Assembly: GCA_051652765.1 (NCBI GenBank)
Contig: JBOFUV010000148.1
Span: 49,341-113,340, forward strand
Source: Microcoleaceae cyanobacterium
GTDB lineage: Bacteria; Cyanobacteriota; Cyanobacteriia; Cyanobacteriales; Microcoleaceae
Length of the DNA: 64,000 bases
Reading direction: 5' to 3'
Shown here: positions 4,346-64,000 of the stretch, one piece after another
How positions within the stretch are numbered: the first letter of the stretch is position 1
How the letters are laid out: the number at the start of each line of letters is the position of its first letter
The notes under the pieces: model-generated
What the model was told of the DNA's origin: nothing
Databases searched by the model: none
What the model saw: the letters and a program-made list of their open reading frames with translations, nothing else
Made by a program: the position numbers and the translations under genes

Positions 4346-5002
4346 TTACGAAGCTACAGTCATAGCCGGTAACTGAACTTTTGTTCCGCCCAAACCACAG
4401 TAACCATTGGGATTCTTGGCCAAATATTGCTGGTGGTACTCTTCCGCATAATAGAACTCTGGCGCATCTAGAATTTCAGTCGTAATTTTGCCTTGCCCTG
4501 CCGCCGTTAACGCTTCCTGATAGGCATCCCTGGACGCTTCTGCGAGTTGGCGTTGTGCTGCAGAGTAAACGTAGATGCCAGAACGGTATTGAGTGCCTGT
4601 ATCATTGCCCTGGCGCATTCCTTGGGTCGGGTTGTGGCTCTCCCAGAACAGTTTGAGCAATTGTTGGCAGCTAACGACCTGTGGATCGTAAACGACAAGA
4701 ACGACTTCGTTATGTCCCGTCATTCCGGTGCAGACTTCCTGGTAACTCGGGTTTGGAGTTCCGCCCGCTGCGTAGCCTACTGCCGTACTGAAAACTCCCT
4801 CTGCCTGCCAAAACTTACGCTCTGCCCCCCAGAAGCAGCCCATGCCAAATATTATCGTTTCCATACCTTGCGGGAAAGGAGGCTTTAGCGGATTGCCATT
4901 GACGTAGTGCTTTTCAGGCACGGGCATCTGTGCAGTTCGTCCGGGTAAAGCCTCATTAGGCCCTGGTATTTCCAACTTTTTGCCGAATCCAAAGAGTCCC
5001 AT
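4346..5002 (-). CDS. msrA: Peptide-methionine (S)-S-oxide reductase
   Basis: GCFWG active site, [12 protein letters not shown]; likely ATG at 5002. Confidence 0.95.
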
Positions 5003-49215: not shown

Positions 49216-52200
49216 GTGAGGAAACCTAGTATGTTCAATCCGATTCAGTACCATCGAGTTTGGAAACGATGGCTGCCAATAATGCTGTTTGTCTTGACCT
49301 TGGCAGGGTGTCGGATTTTTAGCGCGTCGGTGCCAGAAAGCACTCCTCTCGTAGTGGTCGCACCCCTTGCCTCCCCTCAATTACCCGATTGGATTGAACA
49401 AATTAGCCCGACTGGAGCCGCAAATTCCCTGAATCAGATTCGGATTTTATTCAGAGATCCGTTGGTTCCCGTCGAACAATTGGACTCTGGCCAACAAAAA
49501 AAGTTGCTGCAAAAATTCCAACTGACACCTGAATTGCCCGGTCAATTTCGCTTTTTAACCCCGCGCATGGTTGGATTCCAAGCAGAACGGGCCTTACCTC
49601 TGGCGACGCGAATTCAGGTGACGTTAAAGACAGGACTAGAAGACCTCAATAGTCATCGTTTAGAACAGGATTTAGCCTGGACATTTAGTACAGAACCAAT
49701 TCAAATCTCCAACTTTCCTGGATTGGAAACCGAGGAAAATCCAGACGCAGGAAAACTGCCGATTGATTTAATGCCTAGTCTCAAATTCAATTCAAATGTT
49801 GAACTTGATTTAAACTCTCTCCAACAGTTCGTTCAACTCCTGTCTGAGAAAATCAAGAAAGCAATTCCGGTTAAGGTTGAACTGAGCAAAAACAAATTTG
49901 ACCCAGACTCTTTGCCACCTCAAACTCAGTTTGACCCCTCAAAGCATACCTGGGAATATCAGATTACCCCCACACAACCCTTAGAAAAAGCCTCAACTTA
50001 TACCTTATCTCTTCAACCTGGGCTTAAATCAATTCAGGGAAATTTAACCAAGGAATTTATTACCTCTAGTCAGCTTCATACCTATGAACCTCTAGCATTT
50101 AAAACCCTAGAATTCTATGGAAAACCTGTTTCAGGTGGAGCCTATGGCAGGTTTGAAAATGGCAGCCCTCAACTCAAGTTTAATAATAAAATTATTGCTC
50201 AATCAGCCCTAGAAAATATTAAAATCAGCCCTGCTTCCCCAAAGAATTCACCTAAACTGGTTCAAGTTTACGGTGATACAGAGATTGTCAGTTTAAATCC
50301 CTGGGCATTGGAGCCAAACATTAACTATCAAATTACTATTGGTGCCGGGTTAAAAGATGAGTTTGATCAAACCTTAGGAAAACCTGTTACCCTCAACTAC
50401 CAAACCGGGGATCTAGCGGCAGACATCTGGGCTCCTTCAGGGTTGAATATTTTTCCAGCCAATCAGGATCTAGAATTAAACGTTTCAACTGTAAACTTAC
50501 CGCAGTCCAAGTATCGAGCGGGCTATGACATTGTGCAGTCTACGGATTTAGTTTATACCGACTCAGCCTATCCCAGACCTGGAAAGAATCTCCTGCCTGA
50601 CCCAGAAGATTGGAGCTCATTCCGAGTCAAAGATTTACCCAATCAAACTCAGGAAACCTCTATTCGACTGAAGCAAAAACTGGGCAAGGAAACTGGATTA
50701 TTAGCCTATGGAATTAAAGCAAGAACGACTTCGTATCTTCCTGAGAAGAATGAAGCACAACCAGAGGCCAAACTCGGAGAAAAACAGTGGAATGAACCCG
50801 TCTTTTATGGCTTAGTTCAACTGACAAACTTAGGGGTATTTGCCCAGTGGTTTCCCGAGTCTGGTCTGGTTCGAGTCAATCATTTAGAAGATGGTTCTGC
50901 GGCTGTTAATACCACGGTTGAAATTTATCAATCCCAACTCGAAGCGACAATATTTCCGACTCCTAAACCCTGTGCAACTGGAACAACAGATGCGACTGGA
51001 CTCTTGAGATTGACGGCGGCTGATTTACAACAATGTATGCAGGGAAATCGCTTTGTGAAACCCCCTGAATTGTTGGTCATTGCTCGGGAAGATCAGGATT
51101 GGGCATTTACCCGAACCTACGGCTACAGCGGTACCTACGGCTATGGCATCTTTGCAGACTGGGAAACCAATCAACCTCAATCCCGAGGCGTGATTTTCTC
51201 CGATCGCCAACTGTATCAACCAGGAGAAAAAGTTGCCCTGACTGGCATTGCCAACTACTTTCAGAATGGTCAACTCAAGTCCGATCGAAACAGCAGCTAC
51301 ACCGTTACCCTGCAAAATCCAAAGGGGGAGAGCAAACTCATTGGTCAATATACAACCAATGAGTTTGCAACATTTTCATCGGAATTTTCCCTGGATTCAA
51401 ATCAGGAACTGGGTGATTATTTTGTGATTGCAAAAGCCAAAAATGGATTGAAAGTAACTGGCAACTTTAGGGTTGCAGAATTTAAGCCTCCAAACTTTAA
51501 AGCAAGCTTAACTCTGGATCGAGAAATTGCTTTAGTTGATGAAACAATTACAGCAACAACCCAGAGTGATTACTTATTTGGTGCGCCTGTCTCTAATGCC
51601 AATGCCAATTACTATGTCACCCGAACTGCAACGGAATTTACTCCCAAAGGATGGGAAAAATATACGTTTGGCCGACAGTGGTTTTGGCCCGAAGAAAAGC
51701 CGTCTCTGTCCAGTGATGTTCTCCAGAAATCTCAGGTGTTAGATCATGCTGGAACAGGGAGTCAAATTGTAAAAATTGCCAAGGATTTACCCTATCCAGC
51801 TCAGTATCGAGTGGACGTTGAAGTATCTGATGTTTCTAACTTATCTGTGACGGATTCAAAAACAGTGATGGCGTTACCTAGCGATCGCTTGATTGGCCTA
51901 AAAAGTCCATTTGTTGCAGAAGCAGGTCAAGAATTTTCCCTAGAATTAATCGTCACTGATCCAACTGGAAAACCCTTAGAAAATGTTGACTTGAACATAG
52001 AGCTACACAAGATGGATTATAGCAGTGTGACACGGGTCGTTGAGGGCGGACAAACCAATCAAAACCAGGTAGAGTACAAAACAGTGGCTCAAGCTCCAGT
52101 GAAATCCAAAGCCACAGAACAAACTGTGAATCTAACTCCGCCTGAACCCGGTTCCTACCGAATTCGTGCTAATTTTACTAACAGTTCTAACGAGGTAACT

Positions 52201-55077
52201 GCAACTGATTTACAAATTTGGGTGACTGGCAATGAATCTGTTTTCTGGGGCAAAGGAAATGAAACAGCCCTCAACTTAAAGTTGGATAAAGCAACCTATC
52301 AAATTGGGGAAACTGCAACGGTTTTAATTCAATCGCCCTATCCAGATGCGGAACTTTATTTTGCGGTGATTCGAGATCGGCCTCTATATGAAAAGTTAAT
52401 TACTGTTCAAGGGGGTGCGCCACAAATTCAGTTTAAAGTCACCCCAGAAATGTTACCCAATGCTGCCGTAGAAGCAGTGCTAGTTCGTAAAGGAGAGGCT
52501 TTATCTACTGTTGAACCGGGCAGTGTTGCCAACTTAGTTCAAACTGGATTTGTTCCCTTTAATATCAATCTCGCACCGAAGTATTTGCAAGTTCAAGTTT
52601 CCCCAGAGAAAGCTGAATTACAACCCGGAACTCAACAGACTCTCAATCTAGAGTTAAAAGATGCAAAAGGTCAGCCTATTCGAGGGCAATTAACCGTTAT
52701 GGTTGTGAATGATGCTGTGTTGCAACTGACTGATTATCGTCCTCCCAATTTAGTCGAAACGGTTTATGCAGACCAATCAATTTCAACTCGATTTAGTGAT
52801 AATCGCCCTGAGGTTGTCCTAGATCAAATGTCATCTCCACTAGCAAAAGGATGGGGTTACGGAGGAGGAATTTCTCAGGCAATTCCAACCAGTTCTTCAG
52901 TCCGCCAAGACTTTCAAGCCCTTGCCTATTACAACGGTTCAGTAATAACTGATGGCAAGGGAACTGCAACGACCAATGATCAAGAAACAATCATTACAGA
53001 CGCTACTGGAAAAGCCAAAATTACCTTTACAATTCCCGACGACTTAACTACTTGGAGAGTTATGGTGGTTGCTAGCGATCGCAATCTGAATTTTGGATCG
53101 GGTGAAACCACATTTACCGCGACAAAAACGTTGCTCGCAAATCCAATTTTGCCTCAGTTTGCTCGCCCTAGAGATCGCCTCTTAGCTGGAGTTTCGGTGA
53201 CCAATAACACAGGCAAAAAAGGAACCCTGGAAATCGCTGGATCTCTGACCGAGGAACTAAAATTCTCTGCGGGGAATGCAACCCATCAAAAACTAAAACG
53301 GGCAGTTTCTGTAGGCACTCAAGCCTACCGTTTTCCGATGGTTGCTCAGACTTCAGGCACAGCCCAGGTTAAATTTGAAACTCGCTTGAAAGATCAAACC
53401 GATGCCTTTGAAGTCCCCCTAGACATTCAGCCTACGATTGTAACGGAACAGGTGATTGAAACCGGGACAACCTCTGATACAGCCACAGTTCCAATTAACA
53501 TTAATCAAATGGTTAATGCTGATGTAGGAGGTTTGGAAATTACGTTGGCAAGTACCCTGGTTCCACAAATCATTGCTCCGGCTGAACAAGTCTTTCAGCA
53601 AACTGATTTTCCTTTCCTAGAACCTTTGGCCAGTAAACTTTTAGTTGCAGCAAACCTGGAACTTTTAAGCAAGAAATACAACCAGAACTTCACCGCCTTT
53701 GACTTAAAAGCTCAGACCAACCAAGCCCTAGAAAAACTTGCCCGACTCCAACGGCCCGATGGCGGCATCAGCCGCGATCCAGAACAGCAAATTTCCGATC
53801 CGATCCTGTCAGCCTATGGGGCAACGGCTTTAGCCAAGGTCGCTCAGGCCGGATTTGTTGTTGATTCAGATCAAATCAATAGTCTCAAAGCTTACCTGAA
53901 ACAAGTTTTAGCGAATCCCGGCAAAGACAATTTCTGTGTCGATTTGATTTGCAAAGCTCAACTGCGATTAGATATTTTGATTGCCCTTGCTGATTTGGGA
54001 TCACAATCCAATGAATTCATTGCCGATATCTATGGATTACGAGATGAATTTGATTTAGTAACTCAGATCAAATTAGCTCGATATTTATCAAACTTGCCAG
54101 AGTGGAAATTAGAGTCTAACGAGCTAGTGAATCAACTGCAAAAAAGTATCTACCAAACAGGCCAAACTGCAACGATTAGTACAGGGACAAATCCCAACTC
54201 CAGCTACAGTTGGATGCGATCGCCAACAGTTTCTCAGGCTGAAGCATTACAGCTTTTTATTGCTCAAAATACTCAACCCGAAAAAACAGATGCGCTCCTG
54301 AAAAGTTTGTTGGATTTGAGGCGGAATGGAGCCTGGGGTAGTACCTATGATAATGCCGCAGCACTAAGCGCTCTAGTGGCCTATGCTCAGAATGAACCGA
54401 CTCCTAGCAAGTTTGAGATTTCCGTACAACTGTCTGGCAAACCCATTGGCTCAACAGAATTTAATGGATACCAAAATTCAGCCTGGAAGTTAACCATTCC
54501 CATGAAAGAATTGCCCCGAGGCAAGACTAACTTAACCCTTCAAACCTCAGGTCAGGGCCGACTGAATTACTTAGTAGCTTATCGCTATCGGTTGGATGGC
54601 AATCAACCCGGACGATTGAATGGATTGCGGGTGGATCGAACCATTCGGGCTGCCAATGAAACTGAAGCCTTATACCGCATGGGGTTAACCTCAAACTCTA
54701 AGCCTTTCCAAGTTAAGCCCGGTCAAGTCTTTGATATTGGCCTGGAAATCATTACTGACCACCCGGTGAATCAAGTGCTGATTACTGACCCCTTGCCTGC
54801 AGGGTTTGAAGCAATTGATGCTAGTTTTCAGACGAGCAACCCCGCAGTTCAGGCCCAGTCCGATAGTTGGGAGATTAACTATCAAACCATTCACCGCGAT
54901 CGCGTTGTCGCCTATGGGGATCGCCTCGAACCGGGAGTCTATCAATTACATTACTTAGTCCGTTCAGTCACGCCGGGAGAGTTCGATTGGCCAGGGGCAG
55001 AGGCCCGCTTGCAATACACCCCAGAAGAATTTGGTCGGAGTGCCTTGACGACCCTTGTGGTTTCTGAACAGCCTTAA
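49216..55077 (+). CDS. Bacterial alpha-2-macroglobulin family lipoprotein
   Basis: Lipobox LAGC; SDRQLYQPGE, FRVAEFKPP, PDDLTTWRV, DPLPAGFE, YLVRSVTPG. Confidence 0.9.
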   Translation: MRKPSMFNPIQYHRVWKRWLPIMLFVLTLAGCRIFSASVPESTPLVVVAPLASPQLPDWIEQISPTGAANSLNQIRILFRDPLVPVEQLDSGQQKKLLQKFQLTPELPGQFRFLTPRMVGFQAERALPLATRIQVTLKTGLEDLNSHRLEQDLAWTFSTEPIQISNFPGLETEENPDAGKLPIDLMPSLKFNSNVELDLNSLQQFVQLLSEKIKKAIPVKVELSKNKFDPDSLPPQTQFDPSKHTWEYQITPTQPLEKASTYTLSLQPGLKSIQGNLTKEFITSSQLHTYEPLAFKTLEFYGKPVSGGAYGRFENGSPQLKFNNKIIAQSALENIKISPASPKNSPKLVQVYGDTEIVSLNPWALEPNINYQITIGAGLKDEFDQTLGKPVTLNYQTGDLAADIWAPSGLNIFPANQDLELNVSTVNLPQSKYRAGYDIVQSTDLVYTDSAYPRPGKNLLPDPEDWSSFRVKDLPNQTQETSIRLKQKLGKETGLLAYGIKARTTSYLPEKNEAQPEAKLGEKQWNEPVFYGLVQLTNLGVFAQWFPESGLVRVNHLEDGSAAVNTTVEIYQSQLEATIFPTPKPCATGTTDATGLLRLTAADLQQCMQGNRFVKPPELLVIAREDQDWAFTRTYGYSGTYGYGIFADWETNQPQSRGVIFSDRQLYQPGEKVALTGIANYFQNGQLKSDRNSSYTVTLQNPKGESKLIGQYTTNEFATFSSEFSLDSNQELGDYFVIAKAKNGLKVTGNFRVAEFKPPNFKASLTLDREIALVDETITATTQSDYLFGAPVSNANANYYVTRTATEFTPKGWEKYTFGRQWFWPEEKPSLSSDVLQKSQVLDHAGTGSQIVKIAKDLPYPAQYRVDVEVSDVSNLSVTDSKTVMALPSDRLIGLKSPFVAEAGQEFSLELIVTDPTGKPLENVDLNIELHKMDYSSVTRVVEGGQTNQNQVEYKTVAQAPVKSKATEQTVNLTPPEPGSYRIRANFTNSSNEVTATDLQIWVTGNESVFWGKGNETALNLKLDKATYQIGETATVLIQSPYPDAELYFAVIRDRPLYEKLITVQGGAPQIQFKVTPEMLPNAAVEAVLVRKGEALSTVEPGSVANLVQTGFVPFNINLAPKYLQVQVSPEKAELQPGTQQTLNLELKDAKGQPIRGQLTVMVVNDAVLQLTDYRPPNLVETVYADQSISTRFSDNRPEVVLDQMSSPLAKGWGYGGGISQAIPTSSSVRQDFQALAYYNGSVITDGKGTATTNDQETIITDATGKAKITFTIPDDLTTWRVMVVASDRNLNFGSGETTFTATKTLLANPILPQFARPRDRLLAGVSVTNNTGKKGTLEIAGSLTEELKFSAGNATHQKLKRAVSVGTQAYRFPMVAQTSGTAQVKFETRLKDQTDAFEVPLDIQPTIVTEQVIETGTTSDTATVPININQMVNADVGGLEITLASTLVPQIIAPAEQVFQQTDFPFLEPLASKLLVAANLELLSKKYNQNFTAFDLKAQTNQALEKLARLQRPDGGISRDPEQQISDPILSAYGATALAKVAQAGFVVDSDQINSLKAYLKQVLANPGKDNFCVDLICKAQLRLDILIALADLGSQSNEFIADIYGLRDEFDLVTQIKLARYLSNLPEWKLESNELVNQLQKSIYQTGQTATISTGTNPNSSYSWMRSPTVSQAEALQLFIAQNTQPEKTDALLKSLLDLRRNGAWGSTYDNAAALSALVAYAQNEPTPSKFEISVQLSGKPIGSTEFNGYQNSAWKLTIPMKELPRGKTNLTLQTSGQGRLNYLVAYRYRLDGNQPGRLNGLRVDRTIRAANETEALYRMGLTSNSKPFQVKPGQVFDIGLEIITDHPVNQVLITDPLPAGFEAIDASFQTSNPAVQAQSDSWEINYQTIHRDRVVAYGDRLEPGVYQLHYLVRSVTPGEFDWPGAEARLQYTPEEFGRSALTTLVVSEQP

Positions 55078-55130
55078 ACTTGACTGGGTCGTATTCACGT
55101 TTGAGCTACCCTTGGTCACTCCTGCCATAT

Positions 55131-55224
55131 GGAACCCATTTGGTCTCTTAGCGAGAGAAGCAAGACTGAAAAAATGAAGTATGCAAGCAGCTTGACAGAC
55201 AAAGAGTGGGACATAATCGAACCC
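55131..55224 (+). mobile_element. IS5-family left-end remnant
   Basis: GGAACCCATTTG possible terminal IR, then ATG 55174 MKYASSLTDKEWDIIEP resembling IS5 transposase N-terminus; abuts truncated array repeat. Confidence 0.6.
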
Positions 55225-55317
55225 CGTCGGTGAAGCCCCATAAAGTTTTCGGGTGTTGGGCGAGGACACGATTCCCTACGGGAGAGGCTGCACAACGATT
55301 TCGTCAAGGATGGGTTT
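55225..55317 (-). repeat. Array repeat R0 (truncated; 23-nt insertion)
   Basis: Minus strand reads KPILDEI[ins]DRVLAQHPKTLWGFTD, then cut by IS remnant. Confidence 0.85.
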
Positions 55318-55660
55318 AAGCTGTTGCATAGCCTGAGTATTGGCGTAAATAAGGCGGTTGAAATCCAATGACAATATCTTCTTTGGGGATACCTCGCTCA
55401 ACAAGATCTTGACCAATATCTAATTCAGTATTGTTAATCTGAATCCAAATTTTTTCGTTTTTAATATCTAAATGAATTGAACAGCCGTAGACTCTCTCTT
55501 TTTTATCCCAGCCGATCGCAACGACCTGGTAATGATCGTGTTCGGTGTCAAAAACGGTTTGAATCTCAATATCACCATAGGATGGTTTGTAGGCAGCATA
55601 TTGCTCCAGCAGTTGCTTGATGATGGTTCGATAAGTTTGGAGTTTTTCTAGACTTGCCAT
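55316..55660 (-). CDS. xisI: XisI family protein
   Basis: FDTEHDHYQ, GW, HLDIKNEKIWIQ, GIPKEDIVIGF. Confidence 0.9.
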   Translation of the reverse strand: MASLEKLQTYRTIIKQLLEQYAAYKPSYGDIEIQTVFDTEHDHYQVVAIGWDKKERVYGCSIHLDIKNEKIWIQINNTELDIGQDLVERGIPKEDIVIGFQPPYLRQYSGYATA

Positions 55661-56061
55661 AAAACGATTACCTCATTTTCAATGTCATAAACGAAAAGTT
55701 CAAGTTCATACTGTTGAATAACCATGCGCGGAAATTCTTTTTGAAAGAATGTTTTATAGGCGACATCTGGAACAGCAAGAAATAATTTCCGTTCTGGATC
55801 GGCCACTTTTAATGCCACACGATAGTTAATGAATTGCCCGATCGCGAGATGGAAATCAGCAAGGCTAGAGGTGTTGATAAAGCTTTTGATTTCGACGGCA
55901 ATCTTTTTGCCATCGCGTTCGGCGGCGAGTAGTTTTTCTGCACCGAGGTCAATGAAGAAGTCTACGCCACCTACTTTAAGGAAAAGCGGATCATCGGTAA
56001 TTTGCCAGCCGTCTTTAATCAGGGCAGTTTTGACCACATCATGGAACAGATCTTTTGCCAT
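55648..56061 (-). CDS. xisH: XisH family protein (PD-(D/E)XK nuclease-like)
   Basis: AKDLFHDVVKTALIKDGW, IDLGAEK, IAVEIKSF, AIGQF. Confidence 0.9.
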   Translation of the reverse strand: MAKDLFHDVVKTALIKDGWQITDDPLFLKVGGVDFFIDLGAEKLLAAERDGKKIAVEIKSFINTSSLADFHLAIGQFINYRVALKVADPERKLFLAVPDVAYKTFFQKEFPRMVIQQYELELFVYDIENEVIVLWQV

Positions 56062-56180
56062 TACTCGTCACCTCCATTGTCTTTGCCCATGCGGTACTTA
56101 ATATCGTAGTTGATGAGGTCGTCGAGTTCTTGGTCGGTGAAGCCCCCCGAAATCTTTTGATGTTGGGCGAGGACGCGATC
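56061..56180 (-). repeat. Array repeat R1
   Basis: DRVLAQHQKISGGFTDQELDDLINYDIKYRMGKDNGGDE*; TAATG overlap with xisH start. Confidence 0.92.
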
Positions 56181-56406
56181 ATGAGATTTCTGCAAGCCGC
56201 CCCATCTCGACGCTGACAGCATCAAAGCGGTTATCACTAGGTCGATAGGATAAAAGTTCCATCCCAATGGGTTCGCCCGTCGTTTCATCTTTGATTAGAA
56301 TGACTCCATCTCCCAGTTCTGTTGCAATTTGATTTTTTCGCGGAGGTTGCCAAAAAACTGTTAGCAACTCCATTTCGGGTTCGTAGTAGATTTTTACTTG
56401 TGCCAT
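56179..56406 (-). CDS. DUF2283-like putative antitoxin
   Basis: ATG 56406 MAQVKIYYEPEMELLTVFW...GVILIKDETTGEPIGMELL. Confidence 0.7.
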   Translation of the reverse strand: MAQVKIYYEPEMELLTVFWQPPRKNQIATELGDGVILIKDETTGEPIGMELLSYRPSDNRFDAVSVEMGRLAEIS

Positions 56407-56699
56407 AGGGGTTCTCCTTCTTTGATTGCATCGGTTTGGTAAGCCGTGATCAGAAATCCATCTCCATTTAACCGTCGGGCAACGCCAACAACCCATCGCT
56501 TTTCTTTCAAAACCAAATAAAACAGCAATAGGTTTGGATCGCGGCTACTGCGACGAATTTCATCGGGATTGGTCAGTGCTTGTCTGACTTCGGCTTCGAG
56601 ATCGGCAATGTCTGGATGTTTGACGATCAGTTTTTGCCAATATTCTTCTGAGGTGCGAACGGTGAAGTTGAGGGGAGTGAGGATTTCAAATTTACTCAT
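56394..56699 (-). CDS. DUF4258/RelE-like putative toxin
   Basis: WQKLIVKHP...PDEIRRS...GFLITAY; overlaps DUF2283 partner. Confidence 0.65.
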   Translation of the reverse strand: MSKFEILTPLNFTVRTSEEYWQKLIVKHPDIADLEAEVRQALTNPDEIRRSSRDPNLLLFYLVLKEKRWVVGVARRLNGDGFLITAYQTDAIKEGEPLWHK

Positions 56700-57043
56700 G
56701 AGTCATCACCTCTGGGTGAAACCAATGGTTCAATATAATTTAATAGTTGAGGTAAGTTTTCGTTGATGACTGTCCAGACTTCATCGAGATCGACTTCATC
56801 ATAATCATGGGTGATGACATCACGCATTCCAGCAATTTCTTTCCAGGGAATGGTAGGATGCTGTTCCCTAAAATCTTTTGAGAGTCGTTTGGTCGCTTCG
56901 CCGATGATGGTGATGCGGCGCAAAATCGCATCTTGTTTTTCGATGTTGGCTGCTAAGTTAGCGAAATTAACTGCTTCAACATATCGAAGAATGAGTTTGA
57001 TGGCTTCTACAATGTCGATTAAGGTTTCTCGATCACGTGACAT
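56696..57043 (-). CDS. HEPN (DUF86/HepT-like) RNase toxin
   Basis: IIGEATKRLS, RX4HXY motif RDVITHDY. Confidence 0.9.
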   Translation of the reverse strand: MSRDRETLIDIVEAIKLILRYVEAVNFANLAANIEKQDAILRRITIIGEATKRLSKDFREQHPTIPWKEIAGMRDVITHDYDEVDLDEVWTVINENLPQLLNYIEPLVSPRGDDS

Positions 57044-57371
57044 AAATTACCTCGGCAGCATCTAGAATATTCTTACGCCGAAGCCAATTATGGCTTTGTT
57101 CAATAGCTTTTTTGCTGACTAAATCAACATCTCGATGCAGCAGGGATGAAAGTTCTTCTTGCATTCTAATTTTTTCAAAAAGTCCTCGTTTGGCAGTGGG
57201 TCGATACGAAACGAGAACATCAATGTCGCTATCAGCATGAAAGTCATCTCGCAGAACCGAGCCAAAAAGTGCTAGTTCAGATACTTGCCAACGCTGACAA
57301 AATTCCATCAGTTGTTCCGGAGTAATTCCCAGTCGGGATTGAAGTCGAGAGTTTAGTTGAAGTGTAGTCAT
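57033..57371 (-). CDS. MNT minimal nucleotidyltransferase antitoxin (MntA-like)
   Basis: GSX10DXD motif FGSVLRDDFHADSDID, VDLV. Confidence 0.9.
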   Translation of the reverse strand: MTTLQLNSRLQSRLGITPEQLMEFCQRWQVSELALFGSVLRDDFHADSDIDVLVSYRPTAKRGLFEKIRMQEELSSLLHRDVDLVSKKAIEQSHNWLRRKNILDAAEVIYVT

Positions 57372-57490
57372 CAGTCATCACCTCCGTTATCTCTGCCCAT
57401 GCGGTACTTAATATCGTAGTTGATGAGGTCGTCGAGTTCTTGGTCGGTGAAGCCCCATAAGGTTTTTGGGTGTTGGGCGAGGACGAGATC
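57371..57490 (-). repeat. Array repeat R2
   Basis: DLVLAQHPKTLWGFTDQELDDLINYDIKYRMGRDNGGDD*; TGATG overlap with MNT start. Confidence 0.92.
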
Positions 57491-57520
57491 GTTCGCTTAT
57501 CAATGTTTCATACCTTCGTT

Positions 57521-57733
57521 CTAGTACGCGATCGCCTTTTGAGCAATCATATACTCAATGGCTTGTGGGTTATCAATCCGTTTGGAAGCCTGAAGAATTT
57601 CGATACCAACGACATTTCTACTAGAGTCAAAGTCCAGGATAATGCCGGGGGTTTCTTCGTCACTTTCTTCAATCTCCACATCCTTGAGGGTAATCCGAAT
57701 CACATCTACTTCAGGGTCATATTTGATTTTCAT
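57521..57733 (-). CDS. DUF2283 family putative antitoxin
   Basis: MKIKYDPEVDVIRI...GIILDFDSSRNVVGIEILQAS; ATG 57733. Confidence 0.85.
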   Translation of the reverse strand: MKIKYDPEVDVIRITLKDVEIEESDEETPGIILDFDSSRNVVGIEILQASKRIDNPQAIEYMIAQKAIAY

Positions 57734-57822
57734 GGATTCCTCCAATGTTTTTTAATTTGGCTTGTGCGATAAACGGTTACAACTATTGCGGGGTCAATGG
57801 TGGTATTGATGAAGACACGAAT
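57730..57822 (-). pseudogene. 3-prime remnant of DUF4258-like toxin
   Basis: Manual translation IRVFINTTIDPAIVVTVYRTSQIKKHWRNP*, ATGA overlap with DUF2283 start; no 5-prime part. Confidence 0.7.
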
Positions 57823-58042
57823 CACTCATTAGCCGCCAGGGAAGTTCAGGCGCTAAGGTTTGAACATCAGCAGGAATATTAATCGCTGCTTCACCAATAA
57901 TAATTAGGTCATAAAGCACGGCCTTAACGATGGTTTCATCTTGACTAAATTGATCAAAACTCATGCCAGCAGTCCGCATCTGAATACTATCAATGGCGTT
58001 GAGAATATCTTGAATCCGTGCTTTGGCAGATCTAGAAGACAT
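57794..58042 (-). pseudogene. Truncated HEPN (DUF86) toxin lacking RX4H motif
   Basis: IIIGEAA...LPWRLMSD then unrelated SCLHQYHH*; 82 aa versus 112-115 aa for the other three HEPNs. Confidence 0.75.
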
Positions 58043-58322
58043 GAATGGCTTCCTCCAAGATCGGTTGTCTTAGATGTTCCTTCAGGGCATCGGCTGTACC
58101 TAGGTCAACGGGACATTGGAGGAGATCTTCAAGATAGTGCTTGATCCGAAAAAATTCAAAAAAGCCAATAGATTCATCCAGTTCCACTAAAATATCCACA
58201 TCACTTTGATGCTTAGCTTGGTCACGAGCAACCGAACCAAAAAGATTGAGAGACTTAACTCCTAAACTTCGTAATTCTTCCTGATGAGATTGAACTAAAT
58301 TTAATGCATCTGACTGTTTCAT
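58032..58322 (-). CDS. MNT minimal nucleotidyltransferase antitoxin
   Basis: LFGSVARDQAKHQSDVDILV, VDL. Confidence 0.9.
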   Translation of the reverse strand: MKQSDALNLVQSHQEELRSLGVKSLNLFGSVARDQAKHQSDVDILVELDESIGFFEFFRIKHYLEDLLQCPVDLGTADALKEHLRQPILEEAIHVF

Positions 58323-58340
58323 AATTTTGCCTTTTTCCTT

Positions 58341-58456
58341 TTAACATTCACTATCACGTTCCATGCGGTACTTAATATCGTAGTTGATGAGGTCGTCGAG
58401 TTCTTCGGTGGTGAATCCCCATAAGGTTTTTGGGTGTTGGGCAAGGACGCGATCGC
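58341..58456 (-). repeat. Array repeat R3 (starts at exact HIP1 58449-58456)
   Basis: DRVLAQHPKTLWGFTTEELDDLINYDIKYRMERDSEC*. Confidence 0.92.
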
Positions 58457-58466
58457 CATGCATAAT

Positions 58467-58805
58467 CTATTCCTCGGCTGGTAAAAATGGAGTGATGTAT
58501 GCCAAAAGTTCAGGAATTTTGGTTTTAAGCACTTCCCAGACTAAATCCAACTTAACCTCATCATAATCATGGACTAGCCGATCGCGCATTCCGGCAATTT
58601 TTCTCCACTCAACTTCTGAATACTGATCGCGAAACTCTGGTGAAAGTCGTTTTACGACTTCACCAAGAATTGTAATTTCATACAAGATTGCTAGTTGTGT
58701 TCTCTCGTCATTTTGAAATTCTACTTCGCTCATGTTGTCAGTTAATCGGAGAATAGTTTGACAAAGCTTGGCAATGTCAAGCAGATAGGACTTGTCCTGA
58801 TTCAT
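58467..58805 (-). CDS. HEPN (DUF86/HepT-like) RNase toxin
   Basis: ILGEVVKRLS, RDRLVHDY. Confidence 0.9.
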   Translation of the reverse strand: MNQDKSYLLDIAKLCQTILRLTDNMSEVEFQNDERTQLAILYEITILGEVVKRLSPEFRDQYSEVEWRKIAGMRDRLVHDYDEVKLDLVWEVLKTKIPELLAYITPFLPAEE

Positions 58806-59130
58806 AGATGACCTGTGCGGTATTCAAGATATTGTTTCGGCGAATCCAGTTATGGCTATCGACTATAGAACGCTTTTCTATAAGGTCAACTTCGCGCCCA
58901 ACCATATCTTCTAGCTGGTACTCCATGCTGACTAAGTCCATCAGGCTCAGGTGGGGATTTGATTGATGATCGAAAATTATCAAGATATCGATGTCACTGT
59001 CCGGTTTAAAGTCATCTCGCAAAATAGAACCAAAGAGCGCAAGCTCAAGAATATGGTGTTGCTTGCAAAAGCCTACAAGTTGTTCTGGCGTTATGTTAAG
59101 TCGATGGTAAATTAATTTTTTGTCTATCAT
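58777..59130 (-). CDS. MNT minimal nucleotidyltransferase antitoxin
   Basis: ATG 59130 after AGGAG; LFGSILRDDFKPDSDID. Confidence 0.88.
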   Translation of the reverse strand: MIDKKLIYHRLNITPEQLVGFCKQHHILELALFGSILRDDFKPDSDIDILIIFDHQSNPHLSLMDLVSMEYQLEDMVGREVDLIEKRSIVDSHNWIRRNNILNTAQVIYESGQVLSA

Positions 59131-59165
59131 CTGCTTTTCTCCTAATACTTTTGTCTTGTTATTTT

Positions 59166-59283
59166 TTAACTTTTGCGATCGCGCCCCATGCGGTATTTGA
59201 TATCGTAGTTGATGAGGTCGTCGAGTTCTTCGGCGGTGAAGCCCCATAAGGTTTTTGGGTGTTGGGCAAGGACGTGATCGATT
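59166..59283 (-). repeat. Array repeat R4 (HIP1 at 59175-59182)
   Basis: IDHVLAQHPKTLWGFTAEELDDLINYDIKYRMGRDRKS*. Confidence 0.92.
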
Positions 59284-59289
59284 CTAAGT

Positions 59290-59625
59290 TTAGGCAATTG
59301 CAAATCCGGTATGCGGTCGAATTTCAGGTTCATGGAAGCCAAGCACAATATCTTCTTTGGGAATGCCTGCTTTAAGGAGTTCATCGGTAATACCATCTTC
59401 GGTGCCATCATATTGCACCCAAACTTTTCCATTGACAATTTCAAGGTGCAGTAAAATACTATGCAAATGGCGCTGGTGATCCCAACCTTCAGACAAAATA
59501 ATATACTGGTCAGTTTCAGGATCAAAGGCAGCACGATTTTTGACGTTGACGTTGGCATAGGTAATGTCAGCATAAGGTTTGAGAACATTACGGATAATTT
59601 GCCGATAAGTATTTAGGCGATCCAT
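59290..59625 (-). CDS. xisI: XisI family protein
   Basis: FDPETDQY, GW, KVWVQYDGTEDGI, GIPKEDIVLGF. Confidence 0.9.
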   Translation of the reverse strand: MDRLNTYRQIIRNVLKPYADITYANVNVKNRAAFDPETDQYIILSEGWDHQRHLHSILLHLEIVNGKVWVQYDGTEDGITDELLKAGIPKEDIVLGFHEPEIRPHTGFAIA

Positions 59626-60029
59626 CGAGTGATAACCTCCTGATCAGGGTTAAATGTAAACAGCTTTAAAACTTGATTTTCTAAAAGAATTTGTCCAACT
59701 TCTTGTTCAAATAGCTTTAAGAAGCTGGCATCACGAATTGCTAGGTAGAGGGTGCGTTCAGGGTCAATTCGGCTCAGAATATTTTGATATAGAATGTATT
59801 GACCGAGAGCCATTTCAAGATCGCGAATTTCAGAAGGGCTGATAAAGCTTTTGATTTCGACGGCGATCTTCTGGGTATCTTTTTCAGCGGTGATGAGTTT
59901 TTCACCTGCCAGGTCAATGAACAGATCTTTTCTGCCAATTTTTAGGTTATAAGGATCATGGGTGATTATCCAACCATCCTTAATCAGAGCTTGTTTACAA
60001 CTATCATGATAGATGTCTTTTGCTGGCAT
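59613..60029 (-). CDS. xisH: XisH family protein
   Basis: MPAKDIYHD, IDLAGEK, IAVEIKSF, ALGQY; ATG 60029. Confidence 0.9.
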   Translation of the reverse strand: MPAKDIYHDSCKQALIKDGWIITHDPYNLKIGRKDLFIDLAGEKLITAEKDTQKIAVEIKSFISPSEIRDLEMALGQYILYQNILSRIDPERTLYLAIRDASFLKLFEQEVGQILLENQVLKLFTFNPDQEVITRWIA

Positions 60030-60034
60030 AGAAC

Positions 60035-60178
60035 TCAATCTTCCCCTCCATTGTCTCTGCCCATGTGGTACTTAATATCGTAGTTGATGAGGTCGTCGAG
60101 TTCTTCAGCGGTGAAGCCCTCCAAAAAATTTTAGTGTTGGGCAAGGACGCGATCGCTCTCACCAATGATGGGTTTTGA
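60035..60178 (-). repeat. Array repeat R5 (HIP1 60149-60156; internal stop)
   Basis: SKPIIGESDRVLAQH*NFLEGFTAEELDDLINYDIKYHMGRDNGGED*. Confidence 0.92.
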
Positions 60179-60526
60179 TTAAGCGATCGCAAACCCAGTG
60201 TAAGGTCGAATAGATAGTTCTTTGAAGCCCAAAACGATCTTATCTTTGGGAATTCCAGCAGTCATGAGATCGCTAGCAATACCATAGTCTGTTCCATCTC
60301 GTTGAATCCAAATTTTTTCATTGATAATCTCAATGTCAATCAAACAGCCGTGAATCCGAGAATGATCTTTTTTCCAGCCATTAGATATAACCAGATAGCG
60401 ATCATGAACAGGATCAAATACCGTTTTATTGCTTAGCTCTAAAATGTCAGGATTGGCATATTGGCGAGTTGTAAATTCTTCCAATAAGCTTCGGATTATT
60501 TTGCGATAATTTTCTAGTTCATCCAT
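60179..60526 (-). CDS. xisI: XisI family protein
   Basis: FDPVHDRY, GW, KIWIQRDGTDYGI, GIPKDKIVLGF. Confidence 0.9.
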   Translation of the reverse strand: MDELENYRKIIRSLLEEFTTRQYANPDILELSNKTVFDPVHDRYLVISNGWKKDHSRIHGCLIDIEIINEKIWIQRDGTDYGIASDLMTAGIPKDKIVLGFKELSIRPYTGFAIA

Positions 60527-60936
60527 TGGATAATTTCCTCCTGTTCAACATTAAAAACCAGTAATTTTAGACGGTGATTTTCTAGCAAAACTTTACCAAT
60601 CGAAGTAGGGTCTTCAAATAGATCGCGGAAGGTTGCATCCCGAATTGCCAGAAAAAGTTCTCTATCAGTATCAGTACGAACAAGCAGATCTTGATAAAGA
60701 ATAAATTGCCCTAGAGCATTTTTTAGATCTTCAACATCTGACAGTCCAACAAAGCTTTTGATTTCGACAGCAATACGCTGATCGTCTTTCTGGGCAGCGA
60801 CCAGTTTTTCAGCACCCAGATCAATAAACAAATCTTTGGAACCCCATCGAAGAAAGTAAGGATCATGAGTGATTGTCCAACCGTCCTTAATCAGAGCTTG
60901 TTTGCAGTTGTCGTGATATATATCTTTGGCTGGCAT
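60514..60936 (-). CDS. xisH: XisH family protein
   Basis: MPAKDIYHD, IDLGAEK, IAVEIKSF, ALGQF. Confidence 0.9.
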   Translation of the reverse strand: MPAKDIYHDNCKQALIKDGWTITHDPYFLRWGSKDLFIDLGAEKLVAAQKDDQRIAVEIKSFVGLSDVEDLKNALGQFILYQDLLVRTDTDRELFLAIRDATFRDLFEDPTSIGKVLLENHRLKLLVFNVEQEEIIQWMN

Positions 60937-60941
60937 AGGAT

Positions 60942-61095
60942 TTAATCCTCCCCTCCATTATCTCTGCCCATGCGGTATTTGATGTCGTAATTGATGATGA
61001 AGTCGAGTTCTTCGGTGGTGAAGCCGTAATGTTGGGCAAGGACGCGATTCTCCATCGGAGAGGCTGCGCCAACGCTTTCGTCAGTGATGGTTTTA
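60942..61095 (-). repeat. Array repeat R6 (HIP1 split by 24-nt insertion)
   Basis: KTITDES[ins]DRVLAQHYGFTTEELDFIINYDIKYRMGRDNGGED*. Confidence 0.92.
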
Positions 61096-61119
61096 ACATT
61101 TGGATTATCATTATTTTAA

Positions 61120-61458
61120 TCATCCAGGTTTTTCCAAAATCGATTGAATTTCTGGCAAAATATCAGGCAAGTTAATATGAATCACATTCCAGAGAATATC
61201 AAAATCCAACTCGTCATAATCATGAATAACGACATCTCTTAAACCAGCCATTTGTCGCCAGGGAATCGTTGGATGTTGCTCACGAAACTCATTAGATAGA
61301 CGCTTAGTTGCTTCTCCAATCACGATCAGTCGATATAAAATAGCAGCTTGTTTTTCGTCATCTTCTTGTAGATTATTTCGATTAATGTCTTGGGCATACA
61401 GTAATGTTTGTTGGATAGCTGTAGAAATATCCATTAATGCCTGTTTATCTCGCAGCAT
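61120..61458 (-). CDS. HEPN (DUF86/HepT-like) RNase toxin
   Basis: VIGEATKRLS, RDVVIHDY. Confidence 0.9.
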   Translation of the reverse strand: MLRDKQALMDISTAIQQTLLYAQDINRNNLQEDDEKQAAILYRLIVIGEATKRLSNEFREQHPTIPWRQMAGLRDVVIHDYDELDFDILWNVIHINLPDILPEIQSILEKPG

Positions 61459-61783
61459 AGATGACCTCCGCTGAATCTAGAATCACTTGACGACGGAGGG
61501 CATTGTGGCTATTGATAATACTTTGATGAGTCAATAAATCGACTGGTCGCTGAAAAAGGGTAGACAGTTCTTCTCGCATTTGGATAAACTCTAAGCCCCA
61601 AGAGTGATGAGGAAAGAAGCCAACTAAGATGTCCACATCACTGTTAGCGGAAAAGTCATCTCGCAGAACTGACCCAAAGAGAGCGAGTTCTGCAACTTGC
61701 CATCGCTGGCAAAATTCAGCAAGCTGTTCTGGGGTAATTCCTAGTCGTGATTGAAGTCTAGAATTTAGTTGAAGTGTAGCCAT
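61445..61783 (-). CDS. MNT minimal nucleotidyltransferase antitoxin
   Basis: LFGSVLRDDFSANSDVD. Confidence 0.9.
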   Translation of the reverse strand: MATLQLNSRLQSRLGITPEQLAEFCQRWQVAELALFGSVLRDDFSANSDVDILVGFFPHHSWGLEFIQMREELSTLFQRPVDLLTHQSIINSHNALRRQVILDSAEVIYAAR

Positions 61784-61881
61784 TACTCATCACCTCCTGT
61801 ATCTCTGCCCATGCGGTATTTGATGTCGTAGTTGATGATGAAGTCGAGTTCTTCGTCGGTGAAGCCGTATTGGTGAATCAT
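61783..61881 (-). repeat. Array repeat R7, forming a 32-aa mini-ORF between RM gene and first cassette
   Basis: MIHQYGFTDEELDFIINYDIKYRMGRDTGGDE*; ATGA overlap with RM stop, TAATG overlap with MNT start. Confidence 0.9.
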
Positions 61882-64000
61882 GGGATTAAACCCCGTTCGA
61901 CATCGCGGTAGGCGTTGAGGGCGGCTTGTTTGGTGGGGGCGGGGACGATGGGAAAGGTGCTGAGGATATGGGCAAATTCGATTTCGGTGAGCTGATAGAG
62001 ATGGGCGATGATGCCATCGAGTTCGGCGCGGAGCTTGGCGCGATCGACTTCGTTGGTAATATGACCCTCATTAGCCCTCACCCTAAATCCCTCTCCCAAA
62101 GAGGGAGAGGGACTTTGAAATTCCGGTTCCCCTTCGCCCCCCTTGGGAGAAGGGGTTAGGGGATGAGGGCAAACCTCCGCCCACAGGTCGTCAAATTCGG
62201 GGGTGGTGCAGATCAGCTTGGCAGCGCGATCGACGATTGCGGCGAACCATTTGTCGCCCTCCTGAAGCCGAGGAACAGGAAGTTGATAAAGGAAGAAAAA
62301 CGTCAGGTTAGTTGTAACTCGTTGGCGAATCAAATAGTCAATAATAAATGAGTTGAGAATGCAACAGAAGAATAATTCTGACTGGTAACTGATCTGTTCT
62401 TTAGAATCTCGAATTATTACTGTAGGTATTTTATGATTGCAAAATACTTGTCTTGGGAGCATTGTTATAATTGCAGTTCTCTGATCAGTATTTCTAGCAA
62501 TATCTCTAAATCCAAGCCGATAGGTTTGGTAACTTAGTATTTGCCCAAGATCTTCTTCACCGCGTTTAATTAATGCTGTTCTAGCTTCGCTTTCATCTAA
62601 CCAATACTTAGGTTGTCCCCACTGATGGGTGAACTGGTGAATCATCTTGCCTTCGTAGAGCGGCAGTCGCCCCGGTGCTGGCTCCGGCTTGAACAGATGA
62701 CTGTCACTCGTCATATTCAACTCTTGGCACAGTTTCAGATTCCACTTGCCGTCAATCTTTTCGCCCAGCAAGGGGAATTGCAGCATCTTTTGGGCAATGG
62801 TGATGTCGATCGGTTGCTTAAACTCCATCACCGACAGCGAATCTGGCGATAGCTTGCGGATGAGCGGCACATCTAAGTAAATATCATCAACTGCTGGAAA
62901 TTGAGCAAGTTCAGCAATATCATGACGCATAAAGCGCACTGGGAAGGCTTGAGTATTGCCCCCTTTTTCAAAAGTCAAAATTACAAACTTAAAGCGACTA
63001 TCCACACCCTCAAAAATTGCCTTGCGATTTTCAAAGCAAAATAAGCCTGTCACTTCAGTTTGAGAAAACAGCATTTCTCGTAACTGCTTTGTGCCCAAAT
63101 CCGTATAAATTCCGCTAGGAATAACAATGCCACATTCTCCACCCTTTCGTAATAGGTTAAAGCATTGCTCAGTGAATAAGAAATAAAGGTTGACTTTTCT
63201 TGCAACACTTTTTCCACCCATTTCAGAGCGCTGATTGTGGTACTGTTCAGCTTTTTTAAAATACTGGCTAACATAAGGAAACTGGCTACAATAACTTAGC
63301 CAAGCTTCAGAAATTTCAGGATCTTGTAAGAGTTGATCGCGCTGCTTTTCCCAAGACTTAATGTCCAGTTTCTTCTTGCGAATTAGGTTATCATATCGCT
63401 GAAAGAACTCCTTCTCATCCGTTTGAAATACTTCCCACGGTGGATTCGTAATAATCGCATCAAACCCACCCCGCTCAAACACCTTATCAAAGTGGTAGCC
63501 CCAGTGAAACGGCTCCAGGGCATTGATATCAGCAATGGTTAGCAGTCGTTTTTGGGGTTTGCCCGTCAGTTGGGCTTGTTCATACTTAATCCGCAAGCGA
63601 TTGCTAAATTCATCCAGCAAGAGTTGATTCAGTTTGGCTTGGGATTCACGGTTGAGCTTATCGATGTGATCCCGCAGTTGTAATAACCGCGTTTCCTGGG
63701 GTAGTTCCTCATCCTCTTTCTGGAAAGCGTGTTTTTTATAGAGTTCAATACCGGCATTTTTATCCTCCAGAATTTGTTGATAAGCCGAAGCCGCTAACGG
63801 CTGCAACAAATTCCCTTGCAAAACGCCCTCACCCCCAGCCCCTCTCCCAGAACGGGAGAGGGGAGCAGAAAGGCGATCGAATCCTTCGGCATCCACTCGG
63901 ATCAGTCCAATTAACGAGTTCCCCGCCATGATGTTGAAATCAATATTCGGCAGCGGTTCTAGATCATTGACGGTTTTTGCTGAAGAGACTAACGCCAAAA
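61878..64000 (-). CDS. Type IIG (Eco57I-like) RM enzyme, MTase plus specificity region (5-prime part outside window)
   Basis: PLPNIDFNIMAGNSLIG, GFDAIITNPPW, FENRKAIFEGVDSRFKF, PLYEGKMIHQF, RAELDGIIAHLY. Confidence 0.85.
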   Translation of the reverse strand, partial: LALVSSAKTVNDLEPLPNIDFNIMAGNSLIGLIRVDAEGFDRLSAPLSRSGRGAGGEGVLQGNLLQPLAASAYQQILEDKNAGIELYKKHAFQKEDEELPQETRLLQLRDHIDKLNRESQAKLNQLLLDEFSNRLRIKYEQAQLTGKPQKRLLTIADINALEPFHWGYHFDKVFERGGFDAIITNPPWEVFQTDEKEFFQRYDNLIRKKKLDIKSWEKQRDQLLQDPEISEAWLSYCSQFPYVSQYFKKAEQYHNQRSEMGGKSVARKVNLYFLFTEQCFNLLRKGGECGIVIPSGIYTDLGTKQLREMLFSQTEVTGLFCFENRKAIFEGVDSRFKFVILTFEKGGNTQAFPVRFMRHDIAELAQFPAVDDIYLDVPLIRKLSPDSLSVMEFKQPIDITIAQKMLQFPLLGEKIDGKWNLKLCQELNMTSDSHLFKPEPAPGRLPLYEGKMIHQFTHQWGQPKYWLDESEARTALIKRGEEDLGQILSYQTYRLGFRDIARNTDQRTAIITMLPRQVFCNHKIPTVIIRDSKEQISYQSELFFCCILNSFIIDYLIRQRVTTNLTFFFLYQLPVPRLQEGDKWFAAIVDRAAKLICTTPEFDDLWAEVCPHPLTPSPKGGEGEPEFQSPSPSLGEGFRVRANEGHITNEVDRAKLRAELDGIIAHLYQLTEIEFAHILSTFPIVPAPTKQAALNAYRDVERGLIP
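62074..62170. repeat. Composite MITE-like hairpin element inside RM coding frame
   Basis: Ends gccctca...tgagggc; two internal hairpins; encodes PHPLTPSPKGGEGEPEFQSPSPSLGEGFRVRA. Confidence 0.75.
63825..63866. repeat. GC-rich hairpin short dispersed repeat within RM coding frame
   Basis: gccctcacccccagcccctctcccagaacgggagaggggagc; encodes APLSRSGRGAGGEG. Confidence 0.7.

Follow-up and report, generated by a model that had tools for sequence, protein, structure and literature searches.

The conserved 3' end of a restriction-modification gene as a probable crossover site in a cyanobacterial cassette array

Introduction

Behind a restriction-modification (RM) gene of a Microcoleaceae cyanobacterium, small gene pairs alternate with a short repeat. 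Where does this repeat come from, and how were the gene pairs assembled on it? The window analysed here, a stretch of 64,000 nt, ends at the end of contig C148 of a draft genome of 5.04 Mb in 158 contigs. A preliminary description of the window regarded each unit of the array as the 3' end of an RM gene together with the toxin-antitoxin pair that had followed it, and the whole array as a record of successive exchanges of RM specificity. Loci, genomes and contigs used for comparison are designated L, G and C, respectively.

Repeats and cassettes in the window

The repeat is present in eight copies on the minus strand, spanning 55225-61875, each about 100-150 nt long and placed between small gene modules (Table 1). 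A blastn search of the 5.04 Mb genome detected it only at these eight places (E 3e-11 or better), the sole further match being to a 24-nt insertion within one copy. The copies are 61-88% identical without gaps over about 120 bp, and units of repeat plus cassette measure 0.8-1.3 kb. Six of the eight carry a net insertion of 12 nt. Five of these six also show a change from FI to DL in the translated sequence, and the sixth is cut off before that site. Two copies contain an insertion of 23-24 nt within a CGATCG site, a putative SDR5 repeat. In several copies the stop codon of the repeat overlaps the start codon of the next gene, with a GGAGG-like motif just ahead. Such an overlap is also found in the proximal repeat, which starts only 2 nt past the stop of the resident RM gene (61878). 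The tail-only remnant is preceded by a full repeat in relatives.

Nine small gene modules follow the resident RM gene on the minus strand: four MNT+HepT pairs, three XisH+XisI pairs, a DUF2283 gene with a DUF4258 fragment, and a pair designated X. Judged from their sequences these cargo pairs appear toxin-antitoxin-like; an account of XisH/XisI as an established toxin-antitoxin pair was not found in the literature searched. In relatives a repeat separates the two modules that are fused in cassette 5, and in the window this repeat appears to have been deleted. The fragment adjoining the distal repeat is presumably the end of an IS, judging from the start of its frame. An alpha-2-macroglobulin gene of bacterial type (1,953 aa; 49216-55077, plus strand) converges on the distal end of the array. 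Same-genus genomes possess this gene as well, with no array match beside it in the stretch checked.

Table 1. Features of the cassette array in the window, ordered from the resident RM gene to the distal end.
Feature	Position	Strand	Description
Resident RM gene, family B	61878..64000	-	C-terminal 706 aa, runs off contig end; Pfam Eco57I/N6_Mtase; PADLOC IIG PDLC03613
Proximal repeat	61783..61875	-	Family-A tail without its 5' third; FI type
Cassette 1, MNT1a	61120..61783	-	MNT nucleotidyltransferase + HepT (Pfam); 87% DNA identity to G977
Repeat 2	60942..61094	-	Near-complete family-A tail, FI type; 24-nt insertion 61049-61072 in CGATCG site
Cassette 2, XisHI1	60179..60936	-	XisH + XisI (Pfam)
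Repeat 3	60035..60178	-	DL type, +12-nt insertion, in-frame stop
Cassette 3, XisHI2	59290..60029	-	XisH + XisI (Pfam); 94% DNA identity to G672
Repeat 4	59166..59283	-	DL type, +12-nt insertion
Cassette 4, MNT3	58467..59130	-	MNT + HepT (Pfam); present too in L118, L124
Repeat 5	58341..58455	-	DL type, +12-nt insertion
Fused cassette 5	57521..58322	-	MNT + truncated HepT (MNT2), DUF4258 gene fragment, DUF2283 (Pfam, tblastn)
Repeat 6	57371..57491	-	DL type, +12-nt insertion
Cassette 6, MNT1b	56696..57371	-	MNT + HepT (Pfam); present too in L118, L122, L137
Tail-only repeat remnant	56699..56712	-	About 14 nt; holds GGAG-like motif before next start codon
Cassette 7, pair X	56179..56699	-	DUF4258-like + DUF2283-like genes, both below Pfam cut-off
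Repeat 7	56061..56181	-	DL type, +12-nt insertion
Cassette 8, XisHI3	55316..56061	-	XisH + XisI (Pfam); 88% DNA identity to G977
Distal repeat	55225..55317	-	5' half alone, both insertions; IS-like fragment in place of 3' half
IS-like end fragment	55125..55225	+	6 similar copies on other contigs

Origin of the repeat

Every copy translates to part of one C-terminal peptide, and seven of the eight end in a short tail and a stop codon. The 35-aa translation matches the ends of annotated DNA methyltransferases on seven plasmid records, including pSYSX. In GTDB genomes, where the best 80 of 491 confirmed stretches from many phyla were considered, the peptide lies at most 30 aa from a stop in all 80 loci. 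It shares an open frame with an NPP[YFW] motif in 66 of them and ends a frame of at least 800 aa in 51, several of the remaining loci being near contig ends or having broken frames. At the level of sequence these matches confirm the repeats as the last ~35 codons (~100 bases) of a gene for a type IIG-like methyltransferase of ~1,100 aa, Slr6050-like and here called family A.

PADLOC assigns family A to REase_MTase_IIG (PDLC03628 covers residues 8-1109 of L025), and Pfam finds an Eco57I match. As in type IIG enzymes, a single large chain contains N6-adenine methyltransferase motifs followed by a variable region. The motifs around D501-F509 and N756-P758 are invariant in 44 sequences. The ~230 aa before the tail are about 30% identical between most alleles. 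The tail itself is nearly invariant, and nothing else in the C-terminal third is as conserved; in an AlphaFold model it forms three confident helices. The predicted fold resembles those of BrxX, DrdV and MmeI weakly but consistently (TM 0.2-0.3). At the N-terminus an alpha/beta domain is predicted; no nuclease family was matched. In the loci inspected the gene stands behind a PLD-SNF2 helicase, which could supply the nuclease.

The repeat peptide agrees in 27 of 30 positions with the C-terminus of a 1,100-aa methyltransferase that is encoded behind a helicase on pSYSX of Synechocystis. From its length and replicon we take this protein to be the product of slr6050. For Slr6050 (M.Ssp6803IV), GAAGGC methylation was assigned only tentatively and no activity was shown in vitro, according to the part of PMC6105098 considered here. 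The pSYSX locus has one tail copy and no array, in contrast to the eight copies of the window.

Two further features of these RM loci were observed. The slot between helicase and RM gene is a second variable site, occupied by PIN/VapC, PemK-like or DUF29 genes (C121 of G000, L013, L017, L022, L025, L132, L140). Moreover, tandem RM paralogues are present in L023 (G186:C14), L159 (G186:C7), L061 and L076. There, a full gene is followed by cargo and then by an N-truncated gene or long remnant with another specificity region. Such paralogues are possible reservoirs of alternative specificities.

The resident RM gene

The gene that heads the array in the window belongs to a different family, B, and its end differs from the repeat peptide. 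When full-length B and A alleles are aligned at the peptide, 8 of 22 residues are identical, a weak match (E 0.13). What is probably the 5' part of the resident gene was found on contig C121, at the contig end, preceded by a PLD-SNF2 helicase and by a small PIN-like gene. Identity to a full-length homologue is 83% for C121 and 75% for C148. Hence, we infer that C121 and C148 join in one B gene with about 250 codons unassembled between them. Compared with the A alleles of L131 and L132, the C121 part shows 80-90% DNA identity over the first 300 nt and 49-69% thereafter, so that the first ~100 codons are common with A alleles. Its identity to B alleles is mostly 70-90%, one variable bin excepted.

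B ends occur in 29 of 401 genomes of the class. An N-terminus resembling that of family A (41-60% identity over 360 aa) was found in 15 of 21 B loci examined, and the same helicase lies within the fetched stretch in 14 of the 21. A truncated A tail directly past the B stop is present in the window and in L035, L146 and L147, which supports a swap having left the proximal copy; in L145 and L151, A tails lie further downstream of the B allele. B bodies with an A-like N-terminus and an A tail after their stop thus show that A and B bodies alternate between the same left arm (helicase and ~100 codons) and the same right arm (the tail).

The preliminary description had stated that all copies are read in one frame and, apart from the truncated one, end in a tail and stop; that their peptide is a C-terminus common among Eco57I-like methyltransferases; and that the resident gene ends differently with loose resemblance. 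The data given above bear this out. The check it proposed, for N-terminal regions common to the resident gene and the peptide-bearing proteins, was positive, and the upstream helicase is shared in addition.

In-frame palindromic G/C-rich repeats were noticed inside the resident RM gene (62074-62170 and 63825-63862), where they add Pro/Gly-rich peptides. Elements like these also lie on several further contigs, and both same-genus genomes or their relatives contain them.

Exchange of cassettes between genomes

A pattern scan of metagenomes yielded 14 loci and genome searches added more. After removal of five near-duplicates (L123, L126, L128-L130), 23 loci were compared. The same modules recur in them as co-oriented cassettes in variable order, also in the one- or two-contig genomes G977, G587 and G718; in G977 a B allele is followed by six tails. 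The 44 junctions at which both neighbours could be typed comprise 38 different neighbour pairs. Six of the seven window junctions were seen in no other locus and one was found elsewhere. Contigs from three environmental runs, representing relatives, join window modules in other orders at the repeats (for example 56708 to 60952, and 61089/61094 to 57821, the latter in two studies). One metagenome contig covers 60132-60989, the region of cassette 2, with 17 differences.

Beyond this family, the gene pairs recur in further families and orders of cyanobacteria. Six of the nine window modules are 84-94% identical at the DNA level to one of four genomes from other families; for pair X the values are 90-93% to G672 and G587. 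The recA baseline in three genomes tested is 73-75%, and therefore horizontal transfer is indicated. DUF1517 was discarded as a divergence baseline because it is a paralogue, and recA was used instead. Neither the repeat nor the RM gene was found in two same-genus genomes, and 36 same-family genomes searched did not contain the repeat either.

The position of the exchanges can be read from the repeats themselves. From 21 of 22 loci supplied (L151 contributed none), 54 copies were anchored. In the 37 non-coding copies whose two neighbours are known, the 5' flank groups by the upstream gene: the observed value was attained in 0 of 1000 shuffles, and in 85 of 1000 when the downstream label was used. 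The tail groups by the downstream gene, with 0 of 1000 shuffles as against 114 of 1000 under the upstream label. These tests overstate significance, since the loci are related and several are metagenome contigs. Each cassette carries the tail of the preceding repeat and the 5' half of the following one. Because the 5' side tracks upstream cargo and the tail tracks downstream cargo, the presumed crossovers are placed in the shared core. Recombination within the array is read here from sequence comparison and, for relatives, from their contigs.

About ten of the loci compared come from metagenome contigs and the window genome itself is a draft, so the apparent shuffling might be an assembly artefact at the repeats or reflect local tandem duplication with divergence. 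Both are very improbable. Against them stand the different orders in genomes of one or two contigs, the length (about 120 bp) and the divergence of the copies, and cargo that belongs to unrelated families and is closer to other genomes than to paralogues in the same array.

Descent of the non-coding copies

If each unit had been left by one specificity swap, as an RM 3' end with the pair behind it, the array would be a chronological record of RM alleles. Several observations agree with this. The B allele took the place of an A body, of which the tail remains. Long remnants of old alleles exist: L159 contains 581 bp of a B-type end, 83% identical, behind cargo, and in L023 an entire second gene, N-truncated, persists. 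The remnants of L021 become shorter the further they lie from the gene. Furthermore, window cargo pairs are found directly behind intact family-A genes in L025, L045, L120 and L131. Thus pair X is the first cargo in L025 and L120, XisHI3 follows an A-type end in L045, and XisHI2 holds the first position behind an intact A gene in G672.

However, specificity domain and first cargo vary independently. L017 and L018 have the same first cargo with specificity domains of 36% identity, as have L025 and L120 with 34%, which means a swap without a new unit in the first of these pairs. Conversely, L025 and L132 share a specificity domain (73%) and differ in cargo. In addition, flanks that track the cargo on each side are expected from crossovers within the repeat.

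The marks of the non-coding copies speak against such a record as well. The three-base FI-to-DL change is found in 35 of 47 non-coding copies, a count inflated by metagenome loci that were found with this variant; where loci were detected by way of the B allele, 8 of 11 copies have it. It is absent from all seven coding ends of the clade, and the DL-type core was seen in none of the 80 GTDB ends (best 80 of 491), yet it dominates the non-coding copies. In twenty copies a 15-nt segment with constant edges and a hypervariable middle replaces one codon. The segment was noted in the window repeats from 60035 to 55225 and in L118, L120, L124, L125, L131, L132, L146 and L147. In a low-GC cyanobacterial group, an R-to-P codon change is present in five of eight non-coding copies and in none of the eight coding ends listed. 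Since non-coding copies bear derived marks that are absent from coding ends, they derive for the most part from other copies of the non-coding kind; units captured independently from intact genes would not have these marks in common. Consequently, swaps as the sole mechanism are already contradicted, and it is unlikely that the array is a chronological record of alleles.

The fossil record of swaps envisaged in the preliminary description is hence not upheld: specificity and first cargo are independent, cassettes are reshuffled and non-coding copies have derived changes of their own. Its definition of a unit stands in so far as window pairs do occur behind intact A genes; one swap per unit does not follow. 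Toxin-antitoxin genes immediately downstream, which it expected, are found in this cyanobacterial clade and not generally across phyla, where HicA, RelB-like or XisH is the first gene in 3 of 65 loci. Its further proposal that the repeats provide homology for additional capture is plausible, the flanks tracking the neighbouring cargo.

As a separate matter, the idea that FI-to-DL frees the ribosome-binding site of the next gene was rejected. Predicted accessibility is alike in DL copies (0.39, n=23), non-coding FI copies (0.37, n=7) and coding ends (0.37, n=7).

Recombinase, hairpin and HIP1 sites

Integrons and CALINs consist of co-oriented small cassettes, many of them toxin-antitoxin-like, with related repeats in between and a strain-specific order. 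The present array resembles them as a co-oriented cassette array with repeats and variable order. It differs in that no intI and no attC hairpin were found and in that the repeat derives from protein-coding sequence and overlaps with the beginning of the gene that follows.

A recombinase encoded elsewhere could nevertheless act on the repeat core by excision and re-integration, like TvrR at the pneumococcal tvr locus or IntI at CALINs. The genome encodes seven tyrosine recombinases, conservation of the core 3' of the DL site is high among non-coding copies (39-46 of 46 at each position), and the shared derived marks could be binding features. Against this, a scan of 82 ORFs (170-900 aa) in the flanks of 12 array loci, the window and C121 detected no site-specific recombinase family and no IntI; only IS transposases and a possible RRXRR element protein were present. 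A recombinase between the repeats, as at tvr, was not found, and the nearest tyrosine recombinase (PF00589) of this contig lies at a distance of about 72 kb. Folding 20 copies to a consensus (coding strand, RNA parameters) gave six pairs and no covariation, the covariation term being 0.03 kcal/mol with one strand folded, and no Rfam family reached its gathering score for the repeat. An attC-like or RNA structure of the repeat was accordingly dismissed, as none is conserved. Moreover, equivalent remnants exist in lineages with very different DNA for the same peptide, and 5' boundaries differ between cassettes. We therefore consider a recombinase acting in trans doubtful.

HIP1 or CGATCG has been linked to site-specific recombination and to the insertion of SDR5 repeats in the part of PMC4390886 considered. 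The genome has 3,231 GCGATCGC sites, which together with its XisH/XisI genes mark it as cyanobacterial. The full HIP1 octamer is present in 9 of 46 non-coding copies and in none of seven coding ends, although a single substitution would turn the coding end into it. Many copies have GATCGC as their beginning. HIP1-mediated junctions at the repeats are a weak lead. In L119 (reverse strand, 4585-4776) a whole RM gene has collapsed to a frame of 63 codons while the five-repeat array remains; the deletion runs between a GATCGC near codon 30 and a GATCGC in the tail.

Proposed mechanism

The array is best read as integron-like, with the conserved RM 3' end as homology arm. It is likely that cyanobacteria exchange two-gene cassettes with one another through crossovers at these repeats as a common site, probably driven by homology and without a dedicated integrase.

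In a first step, a unit would be born when an RM allele arrives together with the genes downstream of it and recombines within the conserved upstream arm. Its far end would join illegitimately, so that the old 3' end is pushed downstream, and later deletions would trim the remnant of the old allele. One homologous and one illegitimate end are a known outcome of transformation. The long remnants in L159 and L023 fit this step; against it, most remnants measure just 50-125 bp and more long ones are predicted. In a second step, crossovers between any two tails would add, remove and reorder cassettes independently of specificity. Donor DNA would probably enter by transformation, and excised circles are possible. 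Finally, only those crossovers that spare an intact coding end would survive at the gene, and damaged 5' halves would hence accumulate in the array. Toxin-antitoxin addiction may slow the loss of cassettes. Homology leaves the frequency of FI-to-DL and the hypervariable middle of the 15-nt insert unexplained.

A wider proposal, which we hold with about equal confidence and doubt, is that of a recombinase-free counterpart to the integron. The coding 3' end of the RM gene would be the primary attachment site and the non-coding copies heritable secondary sites with marks of their own, while toxin-antitoxin or defence cassettes and alternative RM bodies would circulate across cyanobacterial orders.

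Comparison with known systems and distribution

Among systems studied by experiment, the pneumococcal tvr locus (SpnIV type I RM) comes closest. As given in part of PMC6265443, it contains direct repeats of ~70 bp at the 3' end of specificity segments with toxin-antitoxin homologues between the repeats, forms circles, and shows low-level excision at long repeats without the recombinase. The likeness lies in an RM locus with 3' repeats and toxin-antitoxin homologues between them. Whereas tvr shuffles specificity segments by its own TvrR, the window system moves downstream cargo and no linked recombinase was found. Here, furthermore, the enzyme is a single-chain type IIG-like protein, up to eight repeats occur, and cassettes are common across families.

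Insertion with long target duplication places inserts between direct repeats of >30 bp with no other mobile elements (Furuta, Abe and Kobayashi 2010; PMC2853133, in part), a source that also describes allelic swaps of type IIG target-recognition domains. The present loci likewise have inserts of <20 kb, direct repeats of >30 bp and empty alleles elsewhere: 74 of the 80 GTDB loci are without a short downstream remnant, 62 of the 80 having at least 3 kb of flank. The R and M genes that the insert contains in the part of PMC2853133 considered are replaced here by MNT-HepT, XisH/I and DUF pairs. In that work the RM genes are the insert, whereas here the tail of the RM gene itself is the duplicated target, duplication is serial, and the resulting copies serve again as sites of exchange. 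No description of cassette arrays built on RM tails was found in the main texts of the open-access literature, including the portion of a 2025 review considered (PMC12707154).

Short downstream tails occur in 6 of the 80 GTDB loci, one of the six being beside an assembly gap and one near a contig end; they belong to Bacteroidota, a Desulfobacterota-type lineage, Leptospiraceae and one cyanobacterium. Short remnants are also present in the low-GC cyanobacterial group. Long arrays are a feature of some cyanobacteria. Among 65 first downstream genes scanned across phyla, 28 have no Pfam match, six are DprA-like and several are nuclease- or defence-like.

These findings suggest, at the sequence level, how defence hotspots beside RM genes might grow and reshuffle without the enzyme of a mobile element: a protein-constrained gene end would double as a portable homology arm, and near-identical cassettes move between cyanobacterial families and orders. 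The repeat can serve as a search tag, the intervening genes being candidate toxin-antitoxin or defence modules, such as pair X and XisH/XisI here and, in relatives, genes for EVE, DUF3644 and DUF5131. The system lends itself to direct tests in cyanobacteria with natural transformation, among them Synechocystis PCC 6803 with its single-copy version.

A DprA-like gene (PF02481) often ends the arrays (L118, L119, L120, L122, L124, L132, L146) and may be a third gene of the system and its distal homology arm. It is missing in the window, where the IS-like fragment cuts the last repeat. In L064 (9326-11091) and L080 (3263-5295), from unrelated phyla, a DUF5131-type gene and its upstream partner lie between tails, with the DprA-like gene close by.
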